Shown here: in pieces, positions 30,738 to 47,114 of the stretch
Layout: each line of letters begins with the position of its first letter
How positions within the stretch are numbered: position 1 is the stretch's first letter
DNA from: Alphaproteobacteria bacterium
Lineage (GTDB): Bacteria; Pseudomonadota; Alphaproteobacteria; Bin95
Length of the DNA: 64,000 nucleotides
Reading direction: 5' to 3'
Assembly: GCA_963422665.1 (NCBI GenBank)
Contig: OY730441.1
Span: 2,061,737 to 2,125,736 of the forward strand
Translations under genes and position numbers: made by a program
Notes under the pieces: generated by a model
What the model saw: the letters and a program-made list of their open reading frames with translations, nothing else
The model's database searches: none
Told to the model about the DNA's origin: nothing

Positions 30738-31818
30738 GGCTTATCCCTTTGGGTCCGGTTTGACGAGATATTGAGTTTCCGGTGGTCGTCGGCATCATGT
30801 TTGTATAATGTTCCGATATGGCGAGCCGCTGGAAATATGACCGCCCGATGTCCCGCGCCACCTTCGAGGCGCGCTTTCCCGATGCAGCCTCCTGTGCCCG
30901 GCCTCTCGCCGCCAGACGCTGGCCCGACGGCTTCGTGTGCCCCGCCTGCGGCCATGACAGGGGCCGGGAACTGAAACGGCGCCGGGCGAGCCGGGAATGT
31001 GCGGCCTGCGGGAAGGAGACCCCGGTGACCGCAGGCACGATCGTGCACCGCAGCCCCTTGCCCCTGAAGATCCGGTTCATGGCCGTTCACATCGTGACCA
31101 GCCACTCGAATGGTATCTCCGCCCTGCAACTCCAGGCCCGGCTCGGGCTCGGCAGTTACAAGAGTGCCCGGCTCGGGCTGCACAAGCGGCGCCGCGCCAT
31201 GGTCGATCCGGATCGTAGCTTGCTTGAGGACCCGATCGAGATCGATGAGGCCCCCCTCCCGTTCCGCACCGCAAGAGACCCGGCCACGGGCGGGCAAGGT
31301 CGCAGCCCACAAGGCAAGATGCGCATTGCCGGCGCGGTCGAGCTATCGCCCGAGGGCGAGCCATGCCGCATCCGGCTGGCGCCGATCGGGGATTTCTCCG
31401 CGCGCCGCCTTCGTGCCTTCGTTGCCGGGACCCCGGCGCCGGGCGCGCGGGTGATGGCCGAGGGCTGGAGAGGGTATTGCGGCCTGCCCGACCACGACCG
31501 CCAGCCCAGGGTCGTTGGCGCAACGCCCGCCCCTCTCGTGCTGACGTGGATCCATCGTGTGTTCTCGAACCTGAAGCGCGCCGGGCGCTCGGAACCTGCC
31601 ATGGCCTGCGCCGCGCCCATCTGCGCCGCTACCTCGACGAGGGCGTGTTCCGCTGGAACCGTCGCCGCCACACCGCAACGGCTTTCGACACCCCGCTCGG
31701 CATCGGCACGCGCCTGGGACCCGCCGACTGCCGCGACAGCGCCGGACAACACGTCCGATCGCCGCAGGCCGGGCGCCAGCCGCCGCCCGCCCTACGATCT
31801 GCCTCAATCGGGGCCGAA
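30738..31818 (+). mobile_element. IS1595-family element, degenerate, right end missing
   Basis: Left end GGCTTATCCCTTTGG. Transposase from 30818 with RWPDGFVCPACG Zn ribbon, GISALQLQ, IEIDE, HRVFSNLKR and, after a frameshift, YLDE..FRWNRR. Confidence 0.85.
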
Positions 31819-33160
31819 TGAGGTGTCCCCGGAAAATCGGACAGGTTGTTAGGGTGTATTCCGCCGTCTGACGGAGGAATGCCGATGAGCAAGCGCCGCA
31901 GGTTTTCCGGGGAGTTGAAAGCGAAGCTCGTGCTTGAGGCGCTTCGGGGTGATCGGACGCTTCAGGAGATCGCCTCTCGGCGCCGGGTCCATCCGAACCA
32001 GGTGGGTGCGTGGAAGCGCCAGGCGATCGAGGGTCTGGCCGAGCTGTTCTCGAAGGGCGCGGAACGCCGGGTCCGGGATCATGAGGGCGAGGTGCGCGAT
32101 CTTCACGCCAGGATCGGGGAGCTGATCGTGGAGCGGGATTTTTTGTCTCGCGGGTCCGGTCGATGAGCCGGGCCGAGCGTCGGGCGATGGTGGAGCGCGA
32201 TCATCCGGCTCTGAGCCTGAACCGGCAATGCCGGCTGCTGTCGATCGGGCGCTCGTCGCTCTACTACGAGCCGAAGGGCGAGAGCGCCGAGACGCTGGCG
32301 CTGATGCGTCGGATCGACGAGCTGTTCGTGAAGTATCCGTTCTACGGCGCCCGCCAGATGGTTCGCCATCTTCGCCGCGAGGGGGTGCGGATCGGGCGCT
32401 GCCGGGCGGCTCGGCTGATGCGCCTGCTCGGCCTTCAGGCGGTCTATCGGGCGCTGCGGACCGGCGATCAGCATCCCGAGCACCGGGTGTGGCCCTGGCT
32501 GCTCAAGGGCTTGCGGATCGAGCGGGCGAACCATGTCCGGTGCGCCGACATCACCTGCATCCCGGTGCAGCGGGGCTTCCTCTACCTGGCGGCGATCATG
32601 GACTGGGCGAGCCGCCACGTATTGGCCTGGCAGCTGTCGAACACGCTGGATGCCGGCTTCTGCACGGACGCGCTCGACGAGGCCCTGGCCCGGCATGGCG
32701 CGCCGGAGATCTTCAACACCGACCAGGGGAGCCCGTTCACCAGCTTCGCCTTCACCGGCCGCCTGCAGGCGCCCGGCATCCGCATCTCGATGGACGGCCG
32801 GGGCCGGTGCATGGACAACATCTTCATTGAGCGGCTCTGGCGCTCGCTCAAATACGAGGCGGTCTACCTGCACGAGATCGCCGACGGCTTCACCGCCCGG
32901 CGCGTGATCGGCGAGTGGACCGGCTTCTACAACACCATCAGGCCGCACTCGGCGCTGGGCGGACGGACGCCGGCCGAGGCATACCGAGGTGACACGCCTG
33001 TGGATATGATGGACAAGCCGCTTCGCGCCTTGACCACACCCCCAAAGGCGCAACAGCAGCAACAGGAAGATCCATTCAAGGGGATTCTGGCGGCCTGAAC
33101 TTCAACCGGAACACACCTTAGCCCAGCCGCCAGGCTGTCCGAAAAGGCGAGGCCACCTCA
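31819..33160 (+). mobile_element. IS3-family element (orfA 31885-32166, orfB 32163-33098)
   Basis: Imperfect IRs TGAGGTGTCCCCGGAAAATCGGACAG / CTGTCCGAAAAGGCGAGGCCACCTCA with TG..CA ends. T-run at the orfA/B junction (ERDFL). ADIT..TDQG..ERLWRSLKYE. No target duplication. Confidence 0.92.
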
Positions 33161-34382
33161 GTTCGAGGCGGACCTGCTTCGCGAGACGATCGCCTTCACG
33201 GTCGAGCGTCCGATGGCGCTTGAGGTCGAGGGCCTTGCCGGGGCCGCGCATGGCGAGCGTTCGCCGGCCCTCACGCAGCGCAACGGCTACCGCGACCGGG
33301 TCCGGGAGACGCGGGCCGGCGCGGTCGAGTTGAAGCGCCCGAAGCGGCGCAAGGGGCGCTACCGCCCCGGCTTCCCGGAACCGCGCCGGATGGCGGAGAA
33401 GGCGCTGACTGCGGTGATCCGGGAGGCCTGCATCGAGGGCGTGTCGACCCGCTCGGTCGACGGCCCGGCGCAGGCCATGGGGATGTCGGGCCTCTCCGGG
33501 AGCCAGGTCTCGCGGCTGTGCGGCGGGATCGACGACAAGAGCCGCGACTTCCTCGACGCCCGCTGGAGGGCGACTGGCCGTATCTGTGGCGGGACGCGAC
33601 CTGTGCGAAGAGGCGCGAGACCGGGCGCGTCGTCCCGGTCGCGGTCACCATCGCGGCGGCGGTCAACGACCGGGGCCGCCGCGAGGGGCGCGGCATGGCG
33701 AGCGGCGCGTCCGAGGCCGGGACCTTCCGGACCGCGTTCCTTCGCTCCCCGGCCCGCCGCAGGCGGCGCGGCCTCAAGCTGGCGATCTGCGACGACCGCA
33801 AGGGCCTCAAGGCCGCCGCGACCCGCATCCCCGGCGCCGCATGGCAGCGCTGCCGCGCGCACTTCATGCGCAACCGGCTCGCTCATGCCGGCAAGCAGGG
33901 CCGGCGCGTCGTCTGCGCCTTCGTCACGACCGCCTTCGCCCAGGAGGATGCCGACAGCGCGTCCGCCCCGTGGCGCCAGGGCGCCGACCGGCTCGGGGCC
34001 AGGGCGGCGAAGCGCGCCGCTATCATGGACGAGGCCGAGCACGACGTCCCGGCCTGTATGACCTTCCCGGCCGCGCATCGCGCCAGGCTGCACGCGACAA
34101 ACCCGCTCGAACGCCTCCATGGCGAAGTCAAGCGACGCACCGATACCGTCGCCATCTTCCCCAACGAGGACGCCATCGCCCGGCCGATCGGCGCGAGCCT
34201 CCTCAAGCAGAACGACGAAGGGGCCGTCCAGAGAGCCGGATACATGACGCTGGAAGCCATCGCTCCCGTGAGCGACAATATAACCGTCAAGATGCCCGCC
34301 GCGGCAGACTGAGCGGCCCGGCCCCACCCGCCGGATACCGCAACGGACGCCAAGCTCTTACACCACCGGCTGGGACACGATC
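33161..34382 (+). mobile_element. IS256-family element, 5' truncated and frameshifted
   Basis: QRNGYRDR, GVSTRSVD, WQRC.AHFMRN, TNPLERL..EVKRRT, FPNEDA. Right end ...TACACCACCGGCTGGGACACGATC. Confidence 0.88.
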
Positions 34383-36475: not shown

Positions 36476-36540
36476 GTCCGGCCTCCCCGTCCGATGCTTC
36501 CCGTTATACCGGATTGCGCCGGAAGGGAAACCGCGCCCGA

Positions 36541-36569
36541 TTGCCCGGCGGCGCCTTCCGCCCTATATT
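36541..36569 (+). promoter_or_regulatory. sigma70-type promoter of ssrA
   Basis: TTGCCC-N17-TATATT immediately upstream of the tmRNA. Confidence 0.6.
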
Positions 36570-36574
36570 GAAGA

Positions 36575-36833
36575 CGCTGGATACAACCGGCTATGGCGAT
36601 AAACGCTATGCGGAATAAGCGTTGCGGACCCGGGGGCAGTACCCGGCGCCTCCACCATCCACGGGGGCGAACCAGGATCGACGTGCGTGGTAAAGGCATG
36701 GTCTTCGCTCGGCATGGCACCACCGTTATCGGGCCGCAACTCAAGTGCGAACGACAATGAGGTCGCACTCGCTGCCTGATCGCTGATTCGGCAAGCGCGG
36801 TTTGGAGGGCACCGGGCAACAGAAGCCCTCCAT
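36575..36833 (+). ncRNA. ssrA: circularly permuted two-piece tmRNA
   Basis: Acceptor piece ends GACCCGGGGGCAGTACCCGGCGCCTCCACCA (36657). Coding piece starts GGGGGCGAA..GGATCGAC (36663). Tag GCG AAC GAC AAT GAG GTC GCA CTC GCT GCC TGA = ANDNEVALAA* (36747-36779). 3' hairpin present, and sspB follows. Ends approximate. Confidence 0.95.
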
Positions 36834-36861
36834 CCGCACCGTTCGGGGGGTGGGGGGAGCG

Positions 36862-37341
36862 ATGGCCGAGGACTTCCTGGAATACGACCGGCTGGTCGAG
36901 GATGCGATGCGCGGCGTCGTCCGGCGCGCGCTTGAGGAAGCGGCCGAAAAGGGCCTGCCCGGTAACCACCATTTCTACATCACCTTTGCGACCCGCCATC
37001 CGGCCACAGCGGTGCCGCCGCGTCTCGCCGCGCAATATCCCGACACCATGACCATCGTGCTCCAGCACCAGTATTACGGGCTGGAGGTCCATTCGACCCA
37101 TTTCGAGGTCACGCTCTCCTTCAACCGCATGCAGGAGCGCCTGCATATTCCCTGGGAGGCGGTGACCGTGTTCCACGACCCGTCGGTCGATTTCGGCCTG
37201 CGCTTCTCCCGCCAGGGCGTCGAGCCGCTGCTGCCGGCCGAGGAGGCCGGGGAAGACGAGGCCGGGCAGCCGGAGGGCGGCAAGAGGGACAAGGGCGGCG
37301 GCGGCAATGTCGTGTCGCTGGACCGTTTCCGCAAGAAATAA
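36862..37341 (+). CDS. sspB: ClpXP adaptor SspB (alphaproteobacterial type)
   Basis: [35 protein letters not shown]-terminal [11 protein letters not shown]. Confidence 0.95.
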
Positions 37342-40091: not shown

Positions 40092-40192
40092 GTGCCTGTC
40101 TCCCTTGCGGCAACTCCGGTAATAGTAGAAGCGTATCCTGTGCCCCGTTGCGGCGGCAGGTCAAGGCGGGACGAGCGAGAAAAGCGGAGCCG

Positions 40193-41197
<1,005 letters not shown>

Positions 41198-41230
41198 TCC
41201 GCCGCGCCGGGACCTGGCGCATTTTGGATA

Positions 41231-41260
41231 TTGACACGGCGCCGGCCGGCATTCGATGCT
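41231..41260 (+). promoter_or_regulatory. putative sigma70 promoter of the autotransporter
   Basis: Perfect TTGACA with a weak -10 (GATGCT) at 18-nt spacing. Confidence 0.4.
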
Positions 41261-41318
41261 TGACGGACCAAGCGACAGCCCTGCGGGGTCGCCGGATAGC
41301 GTTTGGAAGCAGGAGAAC

Positions 41319-44300
41319 TTGAAATCCATGTGTTTGTTCCGCCGTTCAGAAATTCTGCCCCCCCCCCCCGCAGTTTTATTGTCAACGAACGCGCCTGACG
41401 CCCGTTGCCGGCGCCATCGCGGGTGCCGGTTTGCTGTTTTTCGCAACGGCCCCCTACGTTCCCGCGCAGGCGACGGTGACCTGCGGCGCCTCCTGGAAGC
41501 AGGGAACCCTGGATGGCGGCGGCGGATGGACGGCCGGGGCCGGCAGGGATTACCGGGTCGTCTGCACCGGCGACGCCAACCGCGACACCCTGGACCTCGG
41601 CGACCTGCCGCCCCCTCCGGCCGGCGCCGGCCGGCTCATCGCCGACATCGCCGACGCGAATATCGATTTCGCCAAAGACGACCTGACCGATGTCGAGACC
41701 GCACGCTGGGTGCTGACCGGCGCGCTGGGAGCGCCGGGCGGGGACGACGGTGGCCTCGATATCGACATCGACAGTTTCGCATCTCCGGACAACGCCTTCA
41801 CCCTGGAATCCTTCGCGGCCATCCATGCCTCCGAGGCTTCCACGCGGGGCATACGGCTTCGGAACCGGGACACGGGGCATACGGACCATATCGTTGCGAT
41901 CAACCACGGCGCCATAACCACCAGTGGTGAAGACTGGGCCCGAGGGATGGAGGTCCGGACCGGGTCGAGGAGCGCGGAGGCGCACGCCCGGGCCGTCAAC
42001 AAGGGCACGGTCTCCACCAGCGGGGCCGGCGCGAGCGGCGTTTACGCCAGGGTCGGGTCGACCGGGGCCGGAACGGCGACCGCGGTCAACGAGGGGAGGA
42101 TCGAGACCTCCGGCGGCTACAAGAGGGGGGTGGACGGCAGCGAGTCGCGCTACGCCGGCGCCGGCGCCGACGGCCTGCGGGCGAGCAATGACGGCAGCGG
42201 CAAGGCGCAAGCGACCAACGAGGCCGGCGGCGTCATCGAAGTCAGCGGCGGCGGAGCGCGCGGCATATGGGCCTGGGCCGGCAATGGCGCCGCCACCGCG
42301 ACCAACCGGGGGACGGTGACCGCGACCGGCGACAGCACCACCGCGTCTCCGAGGCGTACCGCAGGCGGCGTAACGGCCGGTTCGGTTGGCGGCGTTGCGC
42401 GCGCGGTGAACGAAGTCGGCGGCAAGATCACGACCGGCAGCAAGGACCAGACTTCCGGCGCGCTCAGCGGCGGGACCGGGTGGACGGGTATCCGGGCAAG
42501 CAATGAGGGCAGCGCCGGCGAAGCCCGGGCGGTGAACCGGGGTTCGGTCACCACCTATGGCGACATGCTGGTAAGCGGGACATACCGGCGGCCCTCCAAC
42601 GGCATGCGCGCCTGGTCGGCGAGGCAGTCGGCCTATGGCAAAAACAGCGGCGATATCCGGACCGAGGGCCGAAGCGCTTCGGGCCTCTCCACGAGTTCGC
42701 AGCGCGGCGGCGACGGCGAGAAGGCCGTCGCCGTCAATTCCGGCGACATCGTCACCACGGGCGGCCTCATGCCGGAGGACGACGGTAGTTACGCCGGCGC
42801 CGGGGGCGTGTTCGTCTATACTGGCGGGGGCGCGGCGGCGAAAGCGACCAACGAGGCCGGCGGCAGCATCGACGTCGGCGGAGACGGCGTGCGCGGCATA
42901 ATTATCTACGCCGACAACTTTGCGGTGCAGGGTTCGGCGAGCGGCGACGCGACGGCGGAGAATTCGGGCCGCATCGTCACCCGGGGCGACGCCCAAAAGA
43001 TGAGCAGCTACTGGAACGGCGCCCATGGCATCATGTCCTGGTCGGCGGACGGAACGGCGACTGCGAGAAACCGCGGCGCCATCGACACGCACGGCCTGGC
43101 CTCCTACGGTGTGTTCGCGACCTCGGTCAAAGGAGACGCCGTGGTGAAGAACGCCGGCACGATCACGACTCACGCAACCGAGTCGGACGCCACGCTGCCC
43201 GGCGAAGACGGGCGGGCGGGCGGCTCGCACGGCCTCTATGCGGGCCTCTATCGGTCGAACGCCGGCAATGTGAAAGCGGTCAATACCGGCGCGATTACCG
43301 TATCGGGCGCCGGCACGCGCGGCATCAAGGCGATCACCTTCGGCGCCGGCCGGGCCACCGTCCTCGCCGACGGCGGCAGGGTCACCGCCAGCCACGACGA
43401 CGCCGACGACGCGAACGACGGCGTCGGCATCCATGCCTCCAGCGGCGCGGCGGGCGGCATCGATGTGACGGTCCGCAACGGCGCGGTCATCGACGCGCCG
43501 CAGGCGCTGCTGCTCGAAGGCGCGCCGGCGACGGTCGCCGTGACGGCGAGCGAGTTGATCGGCCGGGTGACTTTCGGCGGGCGCGACGACAGAATGACCG
43601 TCAATGCCGGCATTCTGCGCGGCCCGGTCGCCTTCGGGGACGGCGCGGACACGCTCCGCGTCCGGAACAACGGCTATTTCGAGGGCGGACTCGACTTCGG
43701 CGCCGGCAACGACATGCTTGAGGTCCTGAACGGCGGTTATTTCGGCGGCGATATCGATTTCGGCGCCGGCACGGACACGCTCCGCGTCACCAATGGCGGC
43801 TATTTCGCCGGGGCCATTACCGGGCTGACGGACTTCACGGGGTCCGGCGGCGAGATCCGCCTCGACGCCGTGACCTTCAGCGGCAGCAGCGCCACATTCA
43901 CCGACGATGCGGAACTGTCCATCTTCGGCGCCTTCGACCTGGGCGACACGGGGACGATGACGATCCATGACGGGTCCCGCGTCCAGCTCTTCGCCACGAC
44001 GACGGACGACGACAAGGTCGTGCTGCCGCAGATCCGCGCCGGCGGCGGAGTCTCCTGCCGGGACGGGGACAGGGCGGAAACCGGCTGCACCCTGTATCTC
44101 CAGAACGACCTGAACACCCAAGCAACGGCGGGGGAGATGGCGCGGAACGCCGTCTCGCGCGACACGGAGCTGAGCGGAGAGGAAGTAAGGTACCTGACGC
44201 GGGACGATGACGGAAACGAGGAACTCATTGGAACCGCCGAGGTGATGGCCGACGGATCGCAGGGGACGCAGGACATCGCGGAGGAAGCGAAGGCGCATCA

Positions 44301-45336
44301 ACTCGAGCCACCGGCCGTTCCCGACCGACCCGATGTCAGCCCGCCGACTCCCGACCCCGGCGTCGATCCGAAGACTCCCGTCGGCTCCGGTTCCGGCGGC
44401 GGCGGCAGTCGCGGGGCAGTTGTCGGCGCCGGGCTGCTGGCGCTGGTCTTCACGCTGTTCGACTTCGGCCCCGATGAGGCGCCGGACCCGGCGGCGCCGA
44501 AGCCCGCCTTCGTCCAGGCCGCCGCCGGCGAGTCGCGCTGGTGGACGCGCAACCTCGCCTCCGGCCTGACGGCGGGCGGCGGCGTCGGCGGCGTCGAGAT
44601 CGGCATGGACCTGGCCGTCGGCAACGGCTTCAGCCTCGGCTTCGCGACCGCCCCCGAAATGGCGGCGAAGCGGCGCGCCGGCGCGGATGCCGCCGCGCTG
44701 TCCGGAGGCCGCTACAGCCTGCGCGGCGGCTGGCGGGGCGAGCGCCTGTTCGCCGGGCTCAGCCTCTCGCACGCCGACTGGCGGGTGAACGGCTCCTGGG
44801 AGAACCCGACCGTCGGCGGCGGGATGCAGAGCCACTTCGACGCGGCGCAGCGCGACCTCCGGCTCAGCCTGGGCGCGCGGCTCGACCTGGGCGGCGGCAT
44901 GACGCTCGTCCCGCAGGCGGAAGCCTTCGCCGGCGAACTGGAGCGGGAAAGCCACATGGCGGAGGGCGCGGTGTTCCGCGCCGCCATGCCGGGCCTGACG
45001 CAGCGCTATCGCGGCGTCAAGGCGGGGCTGGGCTTCGCCTCCGGCTGGCGCGAGGCGGGCGGCGAGGTGAAGCTGCGCCCGACGCTGAACCTGAGCGCGA
45101 TGCGTGTGCGGACCGGCTCGGAGAGCTTCGAGATGAAGCAATCGGACCGGCTCGGCATCCTGTCCACCGGCAGCCGGGCGCGGCTGGCCGACGCGCCGGA
45201 GACCGCGTTCGGCCTGGGCGCGGGCCTGGAGGCGGCCGGTCCGGGCGGGCTGCGGATGGGCTTCGGCTATGCCGGCCTGGTCGTGGACGGCGAGCTCCAC
45301 CACGCCGCCGCCGCCAGCCTCCACCTCCCCTTCTGA
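41319..45336 (+). CDS. autotransporter (type Va) / adhesin-like protein, frameshifted at the poly-C tract (main ORF 41431-45336)
   Basis: Signal peptide ...AGAIAGAGLLFFATAPYVPAQA. Repetitive A.A.N.G.I.T.G..A.G passenger, Pro-rich linker, amphipathic C-terminal beta-barrel ending LHLPF. Confidence 0.82.
41358..41369 (+). repeat. C12 homopolymer inside the autotransporter 5' coding region
   Basis: ATTCTG-CCCCCCCCCCCC-GCAG. Confidence 0.9.
43573..43821 (+). repeat. four tandem 60-63 nt repeats encoding FG.G.D.L.V.N.GYF.G
   Basis: Units start at 43573, 43633, 43696 and 43759 (FGGRDDRM, FGDGADTL, FGAGNDML, FGAGTDTL). Confidence 0.8.
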
Positions 45337-45348
45337 CGCCCCCAAACC

Positions 45349-45389
45349 CGCCCGTGTCCGCCGCCGACAAGGCCCGGCGGACACGGGCG
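45349..45389. terminator. 15-bp GC-rich inverted repeat between convergent genes
   Basis: CGCCCGTGTCCGCCG ... CGGCGGACACGGGCG. Confidence 0.55.
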
Positions 45390-45506
45390 GCGGCCCCATT
45401 CACCGCCCCGGCCCGCGCCTGTACCCGCCGCCGGGCGGGGAAGCCGGGGCGGCGGTGGTTCGGGTCCGCCGCCGCTGCGATGAGTGCTGTATAAGGACCG
45501 CCGGTA

Positions 45507-47114
45507 TTACATGCGGAAGACGCCGAAGGCGCCGCGCTCGACGGGGGCGTTGAGGGCGGCGGAGATGGCGAGCGCCAGCACGGTGCGGGTCTGGGGCGGA
45601 TCGATCACGCCGTCGTCCCACAGCCGGGCCGAGCCGTAATAGGGGTGCCCCTGGGTCTCGTACCGGTCGAGGATCGGCTGGCGGAAGGCCGCCTCGTCCT
45701 CCTCCGGCCACGCCCGCCCGTCGCGCGCCAGCGCATCGCGGCGCACCGTCGCCAGCACCGTCGCCGCCTGCTCCGCCCCCATCACCGAGACGCGCGCATT
45801 CGGCCAGGTGAACAGGAAGCGCGGCCCGTAGGCCCGCCCGCACATGGCGTAGTTGCCCGCGCCGAAGCTGTTGCCGATGACGACGGTGAACTTCGGCACC
45901 CGCGCGCAGGCGACGGCATGGACCATCTTGGCGCCGTCGCGCGCGATGCCGCCCGCCTCGTATTTCCGCCCGACCATGAAGCCGGTGATGTTCTGCAGGA
46001 ACACCAGCGGGATGCCGCGCTGGGCGCAGAGCTCGATGAAATGCGCGCCCTTCTGCGAGGATTCCGAGAACAGGATGCCGTTATTGGCGACGATGCCGAC
46101 CGGGTAGCCCTCGATATGCGCGAAGCCGGTGACCAAGGTGGCGCCGTAGAGCGCCTTGAACTCGTCCAGCCGGCTGCCGTCCACCATGCGCGCGATGACC
46201 TCGCGCACATCGTAGGGCGTCTTCCAGTCCGGCGGCACGATGCCGTAGATCTCCTCCGGGTCGTAGCGCGGCTCCTCGGGCGCGCGCAGGTCCAGATCGG
46301 GGCGCTTGACCGTGTTCAGGTAGCCGAGCGCCGTGCGCGCGAGCGCGAGCGCATGGTTGTCGTCGGCGGCATAGTGGTCGGTCACGCCCGAGATGCGGGA
46401 ATGCACATCCGCCCCGCCCAGCTCCTCGGCGCTCACGATCTCGCCGGTGGCGGCCTTCACCAGCGGCGGGCCGCCGAGGAAGATCGTGCCCTGGCCGCGC
46501 ACGATCACCGCCTCGTCGGACATGGCCGGCACATAGGCCCCGCCGGCGGTGCAGGAGCCCATCACCACGGCAATCTGCGGGATGCCTTCCGCCGACATGG
46601 TGGCCTGGTTGTAGAAGATGCGCCCGAAATGGGCGGCGTCGGGAAACACCTCGTCCTGCTGGGGCAGATTGGCGCCGCCGGAGTCCACCAGATAGACGCA
46701 GGGCAGCCGGTTCTCGCGCGCGATCTGCTGGGCGCGCAGATGCTTCTTGACCGTCAGCGGATAGTAGGTGCCGCCCTTGACGGTGGCGTCGTTGGCGACC
46801 ACGACGCATTCGCGCCCATGCACGCGGCCGATGCCGGTGACGATGCCGGCGGACGGGATGTCGTCCTCATAGACGCCCCAGGCGGCGAGCTGGGAGAGTT
46901 CGAGAAAGGGCGAGCCGGGGTCGAACAGGCCGCGCACCCGGTCGCGCGGCAGCAGCTTGCCGCGCGCGAGATGGCGCTGGCGGGCCCGCTCGCCGCCGCC
47001 TTCCTGCACCTTGGCGACGGACTGGCGCAGGTCCGCGGCCAGCGCCTGCATCGCCTCTGAATTGGCGCGGAATTCCCGTCCCCGCGGCCGGAGCCTGCTT
47101 TCGATGACGCCCAT
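45507..47114 (-). CDS. mccB: 3-methylcrotonyl-CoA carboxylase beta (carboxyltransferase) subunit
   Basis: [58 protein letters not shown]. Confidence 0.92.

Follow-up and report, generated by a model that had tools for sequence, protein, structure and literature searches.

The locus described here was found in a 64-kb stretch of DNA (hereafter the window; 64,000 nucleotides, positions 2,061,737 to 2,125,736 of contig OY730441.1 in assembly GCA_963422665.1) from an uncultured alphaproteobacterium, and it consisted of a pure tract of 12 cytosines (C12) located between a putative start codon and the signal-peptide coding part of an autotransporter gene. Positions are those of the window, and the components of the locus, each with the evidence used for its assignment, were as follows:

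41221–41327, plus strand: 5′ region with an AGGAG Shine–Dalgarno-like motif at 41311–41315 (sequence)
41328–41357, plus strand: putative start codon ATG (41328–41330) and ten leader codons before the tract (sequence)
41358–41369, plus strand: C12 homopolymer, the proposed slipped-strand switch, encoding proline in all frames (sequence)
41328–41930, plus strand: frame opened by ATG 41328 with C12, about 200 arginine-rich off-frame codons with a stop at 41928–41930 (translation)
41371–41472, plus strand: putative signal-peptide coding part (n-region, QRTR; h-region, LTPVAGAIAGAGLLFFATAP; c-region, with AQA at its end; gene-frame translation)
41473–44130, plus strand: passenger domain, a long beta-solenoid (AlphaFold2 model)
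44509–45270, plus strand: autotransporter beta-barrel translocator domain PF03797 (Pfam)

The frame upstream of the tract (position mod 3 = 0) and the frame of the autotransporter gene (position mod 3 = 1) were one base apart, and thus only tract lengths of 11, 14, and so on (one base shorter or two bases longer than assembled) join ATG 41328 to the gene. With C12, the ATG 41328 frame read ..RRSEILPPPPAVLLSTNAP... The gene frame had a TGA at 41320–41322, then read ..PPPPQFYCQRTRLTPVAGAIAGAGLLFFATAPYVPAQATVTC.., contained no ATG, GTG, or TTG until TTG 41431 (located inside the signal h-region), and stayed open to the stop at 45334–45336, giving 1301 codons counted from TTG 41431. An alternative start in frame with ATG 41328 was present upstream of it, TTG 41319–41321, and the distance from the end of AGGAG was 12 nt to ATG 41328 and 3 nt to TTG 41319. 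The tract lay between the sole plausible start and the signal peptide, as in a contingency locus, and changes in its length would switch expression. The public gene prediction P0003 (1286 aa) began at GTG 41476, past the predicted signal cleavage site, and the database protein therefore carried no export signal. These data agreed with a first-pass annotation made from the letters of the window, which had (i) placed AGGAG at 41311, TTG at 41319, and ATG at 41328; (ii) terminated the C12 frame at 41930; (iii) reported a gene-frame stop at 41320 and no start until midway through the h-region of the signal; (iv) stated that C11 or C14 would join the leader to the signal; and (v) described the remaining 3.9 kb as uninterrupted. 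Its two further statements, namely that C12 was the only long homopolymer noticed and that the gene encoded an autotransporter, held against the homopolymer counts and against the PF03797 match, the barrel model, and the passenger model, respectively (see below).

The gene product is a type Va (classical) autotransporter with a beta-helix passenger and no recognizable enzyme domain. Signal cleavage was predicted to precede TVTC (41473), as assigned from sequence features with no in-frame start as assembled, and the signal-like segment 41371–41472 aligned with the signals of relatives. The AlphaFold2 model of the passenger (41476–44130, 885 residues) had a mean predicted local distance difference test (pLDDT) score of 91.2 and a predicted template modeling (pTM) score of 0.88, and it was composed nearly entirely of short regular strands. 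A Foldseek comparison of this model with PDB gave nothing at E ≤1e-3, the weak best matches being the passengers of Ag43, Fap2, pertactin, and UpaB, and Pfam gave no match in the passenger and, with E values as high as 10 allowed, no peptidase domain. The last 311 residues matched PF03797 (E 4.4e-10; 40.2 bits with a cut-off of 26; profile positions 2–254 of 255); this domain was seen only when the C-terminus was searched alone, and the whole 1301-aa protein had no match in Pfam or NCBIfam. The AlphaFold2 model of the barrel (pLDDT 70) had EspP, EstA, BrkA, and AaaA as its top Foldseek matches in PDB (E 1.2e-6 to 2.2e-5; template modeling scores 0.41–0.47), and a sequence-profile search of PDB with the barrel found nothing. 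The protein terminated with ..LHLPF at 45333, and the final F was invariant in alignments A1 and A3 of relatives. Most relatives bore the precomputed label PF27417, an entry that the Pfam set used for the searches did not contain. The protein may act at the cell surface or in adhesion, an adhesin role being a reasonable guess, and the bacterium may be host associated.

C12 was the sole homopolymer of at least 7 bases in the 64-kb window: among the C/G runs of the window (G+C content 67.8%), 67 were 5 bases long, 10 were 6 bases, none was 7–11 bases, and 1 was 12 bases. The number of C12/G12 runs expected per 64 kb was 0.19 under an independent-base model and, under Markov models of order 3 and order 5, 1.6e-3 and 4.8e-5, respectively (analytic calculation, with the Markov models trained on the window with the tract left out). 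The independent-base model was the wrong null because it predicted 128 runs of at least 6 bases, compared to 11 present. The tract was far beyond chance by the window's own homopolymer statistics. Codon usage was ruled out as the origin of the C run, because CCC accounted for only 149 of the 497 proline codons (30%) in 23 open reading frames (ORFs) of the window and the only other PPPP in the autotransporter gene was encoded by CCGCCCCCTCCG. A survey of Bordetella put C/G tracts shorter than 9 below the threshold (PMC1891110), which implies a hypermutability threshold of about 9, and C12 exceeded this length.

A genome scan with the gene gave nine loci (L001 to L009, 84.5 kb in total), all in metagenome-assembled genomes (MAGs) labelled Alpha- or Gammaproteobacteria. 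Homopolymers of at least 12 bases in these 84.5 kb were exactly four, all of them in Gammaproteobacteria MAGs: C24 in L003, C37 in L004, C21 in L005, and C13 in L007. In each of these four loci an ATG preceded the tract by 27–33 nt, and the homologous gene continued with its signal h-region just past the tract. The layout common to the tract loci was thus a start codon, about 10–14 leader codons, pure poly-C, and a signal peptide; upstream of each of the four ATGs was a purine-rich motif resembling GGAGGA or GAGGA, as read from the sequences. Seven loci had an intact gene together with its 5′ end (the window, L001, L002, L003, L004, L005, and L007), and five of the seven harbored a pure C tract of at least 12 bases (C12, C24, C37, C21, and C13). 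The remaining two, L001 and L002 from Alphaproteobacteria MAGs, had ordinary ATG starts and no tract. As for the other loci of the scan, the 5′ end of L008 was cut by the contig end, L009 matched the C-terminal part only, and L006 is described below.

Two of the five tract loci were in frame as assembled (L003 and L004, which read leader, 8 or 12 prolines, and signal) and three were out of frame (the window, L005, and L007), the gene frames of L005 and L007 still being open for 1541 and 1543 codons. Related genes thus differed in tract length (C12, C13, C21, C24, and C37) and included both ON and OFF phases, these lengths being those of paralogues and distant orthologues rather than of alleles of one locus. 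The three out-of-frame tracts (window 41358–41369, L005:3527–3547, and L007:2847–2859) shared one phase class: the loss of one C or the gain of two would bring each to an ON length. L006:2443–6169 (OZ241901.1), a paralogue of L007, had internal frame breaks with the gene frame open only from 4487; its tract position was interrupted (..SPGTTSPTSP..), and the reading from a GTG passed through it in frame to the signal, which indicates that the ORF was meant to run through the tract. L006 resembles a family member in decay whose pure tract has been lost.

Contig OZ244045.1, from one Gammaproteobacteria MAG, carried three paralogues, L003:2200–6666, L004:2667–7410, and L005:3301–8022, each with its own tract. 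The three shared a 90–93% identical 5′ cassette (TTGACA hexamer, GGAGGA, leader, tract, and signal) and 95–98% identical barrels, and their passengers were a mosaic of 78–99% identical blocks in which the closest pair varied from block to block, suggesting recombination or gene conversion among surface-protein genes. Directly upstream of the C37 cassette and in the same frame was an ORF (L004:2404–2860, translation ..RRLTQEEAARLPGVCERTFRRSVDRYEDEGLDGLVDKRLG..), which we take to resemble the helix-turn-helix part of a transposase.

The protein family was small, with 41 clusters found by word-index search and 96 representatives at E ≤1e-3 among 1.84 billion proteins. The closest protein relative was P0044, a 684-aa contig-end fragment with 61% identity over 665 residues, and its N-terminus comprised a 14-residue leader, eight prolines, RFGSVRARLTPLVGAVFGAGLLFFTTLPHGPAHA, and then AVTC in one frame. 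In the BLASTP alignment of P0044 with the gene frame of the window, the first aligned residue of each sequence was the one directly following its tract; in the lineage of the window, then, the ORF runs from the start through the tract into the signal peptide. Seven of the 136 retrieved proteins (P0003 to P0138), namely P0015, P0016, P0019, P0020, P0021, P0025 (the product of L003), and P0044, had 7–9 prolines within the first 35 residues, and runs of at least five prolines occurred nowhere else in the 136. Further word-index searches with the N-terminal 250 residues added seven proteins, none with a proline run. Several relatives were N-terminally truncated gene calls with no signal; one of them, P0024 (the product of L007), started well inside the passenger because the tract of L007 was out of phase, as seen in the DNA. 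The N-terminus of P0019 read ..GIPACVETIVSFNL followed by nine prolines, which was a frame-shifted reading of the usual leader MCGNDSFIQPT (as in L003): the predicted gene began at an ATG farther upstream and in a different frame, from which the signal was reached, and this copy is probably out of phase by the usual start.

The locus is probably a translational phase-variation (contingency) switch of the autotransporter gene. The proposed mechanism would be as follows: (i) an intact gene for a type Va autotransporter of about 1.3 kaa (thousand amino acids) would start at ATG 41328 and would encode in order a short leader, poly-C read as polyproline, a Sec signal, a beta-helical passenger, and a C-terminal barrel; (ii) slipped-strand mispairing in replication would add or remove C's, as judged from known systems; (iii) at lengths of 11, 14, and so on, translation from the start codon would continue into the signal peptide and the rest of the protein (ON); and (iv) at C12, as assembled, translation would give an off-frame product that stops at 41930, and no autotransporter that could be exported (OFF). 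The same switch would be common to part of an autotransporter family in uncultured Alpha- and Gammaproteobacteria, with tracts of up to 37 C's. Tract length would then be expected to vary within the population, and OFF may be the true state of the gene, although assemblies miscount at 12-base homopolymers. The first-pass annotation had offered poly-C phase variation as a candidate and had proposed looking for the tract in orthologues and paralogues, where it was indeed present (C24, C37, C21, and C13, in both phases); this recurrence in L003, L004, L005, and L007 and the read-through in P0044 support its reading of a candidate phase-variable autotransporter, which appears correct and is strengthened by the recurring cassette of leader, poly-C, and signal.

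Several points weigh against the switch. A scan of 41000–45700 for sigma-70-like promoters gave 0 sites, although a TTGACA hexamer was visible at 41232–41237 in the 5′ region. The 12-nt gap from AGGAG to ATG 41328 is long. The tract was missing from most family members (L001, L002, and 129 of the 136 proteins), and the leader of P0044 had hardly any similarity to that of the window. Six of the seven polyproline proteins, all except P0025, were known from protein alone, and a pure C tract in them is presumed from the prolines. The common offset of the three out-of-frame loci could reflect chance (1 in 4), biology, or systematic miscounting, and all related loci were MAG assemblies, in which consensus errors concentrate in long homopolymers.

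The last two points bear directly on the explanation that survives best beside the switch, which we regard as quite conceivable while leaning against it: the tract is real, its true modal length is in frame (11 or 14), C12 is a miscount, and the gene is ON in most cells. A 12-base homopolymer is error prone on every long-read platform, the offset was the same in all three out-of-frame loci, and the remainder of the gene was intact. Against a miscount, 22 neighboring ORFs supported by Pfam gave no sign of widespread homopolymer frameshifts, which indicates that the assembly was accurate at short runs; moreover, in OZ244045.1, C24 and C37 were in frame and C21 was not, while a length-dependent error should strike the longest tract first. 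A miscount of C12 would refute the OFF state as assembled, not the switch itself.

Expression from such a tract might instead be non-binary: RNA-polymerase slippage or ribosomal frameshifting could give a measure of in-frame product at every tract length, and the number of prolines could tune translation through stalling dependent on elongation factor P, which would make the tract a rheostat or a source of leaky expression; we consider this unlikely as a replacement for the ON/OFF switch. The reported bacterial cases of homopolymer slippage are mostly at A/T runs, not C/G. Related tracts nonetheless reached 37 nt, the tract was always translated (as 4–12 prolines), and transcriptional slippage at homopolymers is reported to rescue frameshifted bacterial genes elsewhere (e.g., PMC4256274, PMC5009743). 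Known poly-C autotransporter switches, however, were ON/OFF on immunoblots (PMC3723659).

Permanent inactivation, by a frameshift at a mutational hotspot in a gene heading to decay, is quite improbable. The gene was out of frame as assembled and offered no other start until midway through the signal h-region, and family members do decay, as in the internally broken L006. The 3.9 kb downstream of the tract were nevertheless stop free and aligned end to end with intact homologues, the decayed L006 had lost its pure tract while the window kept an uninterrupted C12, and a one-base change at such tracts is readily reversible in known systems (PMC1891110).

A promoter-spacer-type switch with a downstream start, in which TTG 41431 or GTG 41476 would be the true start and the tract would lie in a promoter or 5′ untranslated region as in fimbrial promoters, matched the GTG 41476 start of public prediction P0003 but was rejected as highly improbable: the product from either start would have no n-region and would be without most or all of the h-region, such a truncated signal would give no export, whereas autotransporters have to pass the inner membrane; the signal encoded upstream of TTG 41431 could be aligned with the signals of relatives as far back as the tract; and in L003, L004, and P0044 the tract was part of the ORF itself and was read through.

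The proposed translational switch was compared with known repeat-driven systems. NalP and MspA of Neisseria meningitidis are autotransporters with coding poly-C tracts of 6–15 (nalP) and 6–14 (mspA) in which every third tract length is ON; the ON lengths were confirmed by immunoblot for NalP and likewise reported, with no data shown, for MspA (PMC3723659). Like them, the gene in the window encodes a type Va autotransporter and has poly-C within its coding region. Unlike NalP and MspA, which have protease passengers (S8 and S6, respectively), the protein in the window had a plain beta-solenoid model and no Pfam peptidase, and its gene came from an uncultured alphaproteobacterium with related tracts of up to 37 C's; the NalP barrel (1uyn) ranked 38th with E 7.6e-3, and no sequence relationship was detected beyond the barrel fold. 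The locus would function as nalP and mspA do while belonging to neither family, its passenger not being a protease.

The second comparison was with BapC of Bordetella (BP2738/BB2033). In B. pertussis Tohama I, bapC had G11 and C14 coding tracts (a length of 35 is given for the orthologue in B. bronchiseptica), it was out of frame in the reference genome with a one-base change restoring the frame, and mixed alleles were present within single colonies, within 23–30 generations; Taq polymerase was itself found to slip at G10 (PMC1891110). Both bapC and the gene in the window are autotransporter genes with a long C/G homopolymer in the 5′ coding part, but there were two tracts in bapC and one in the window, and the likeness was limited to gene type and tract. 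In Neisseria opa genes (CTCTT repeats) and Helicobacter hop genes (CT repeats), the repeats are in signal-peptide coding regions. Like these, the present family had its tract at the extreme 5′ end and several mosaic paralogues each with its own tract, which would switch independently (three in OZ244045.1), but opa and hop have penta- or dinucleotide repeats and encode different protein families. The Haemophilus Lav autotransporter (GCAA repeats) and a Bifidobacterium breve pilus (poly-G slippage) are further reported cases of repeat-driven ON/OFF switching (PMC9022572, PMC9187656). They resembled the locus in having a surface structure under simple-sequence-repeat ON/OFF control, but differed in having a tetranucleotide repeat or a different surface structure. 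A limited literature search found no paper describing this autotransporter family.

A broader reading is speculative and, in our judgement, doubtful: the unit of start, leader, poly-C, and signal would be a conserved, exchangeable 5′ cassette across a mosaic family of beta-helix autotransporters in uncultured Alpha- and Gammaproteobacteria, with up to three paralogues per genome each having its own tract of 12–37 C's, and would provide combinatorial surface display, that is, Opa-type variation outside classical pathogens. Among the ON lengths, the number of prolines (4–12) could in addition determine how efficiently translation proceeds, by stalling at the prolines or by slippage on the transcript, and expression would then be graded.

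Bacteria exposed to shifting selection by hosts, phages, or grazers characteristically have phase-variable surface proteins, and to our knowledge nearly all documented cases come from cultured pathogens and commensals. The switch mechanism itself is textbook. The coding poly-C device ahead of an autotransporter signal was now found in an uncultured alphaproteobacterium and in Gammaproteobacteria MAGs, and the candidate switch would extend contingency loci to uncultured Alpha- and Gammaproteobacteria, with unusually long tracts and mosaic paralogues. If length heterogeneity is true, these lineages would be marked as living under fluctuating selection; the switch would also provide a simple annotation rule for rescuing "truncated" autotransporter calls (e.g., P0003 and P0024) and a tractable family for the study of very long C-tract switches.

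The autotransporter gene was flanked by a gene for a CobW-family GTPase (40148–41197) upstream and by a carboxyltransferase gene (45507–47114, minus strand) downstream, as assigned from Pfam domains. One further feature was located in the upstream interval:

41204–41220, plus strand: terminator-like hairpin followed by ATTTTGG, 3′ of the CobW-family gene (pattern scan)

This hairpin points to separate transcription of the autotransporter gene, a weak indication given that the hairpin scan of the region gave 2 terminator-like sites compared to 1.8 expected. The second site was a G+C-rich hairpin at 41407–41430 followed by TTGCTGTTTT, within the signal-peptide coding part, and by the same counts it is probably due to chance. 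An Rfam scan of the whole window matched tmRNA alone, with no riboswitch or known leader RNA at the locus. The tmRNA was a two-piece alpha-type molecule running from 36537 to 36834 or 36870 (233.5 bits) with the tag ANDNEVALAA, which identifies the host as an alphaproteobacterium, and an SspB-family ORF (36802–37341) directly followed and slightly overlapped it. A cluster of transposase genes was also present in the window at 30818–34312:

30818–31852: IS1595-like transposase
32163–33098: rve integrase of IS3 type
33518–34312: 5′-truncated Mutator-family ORF, covering only profile positions 153–375 of 379

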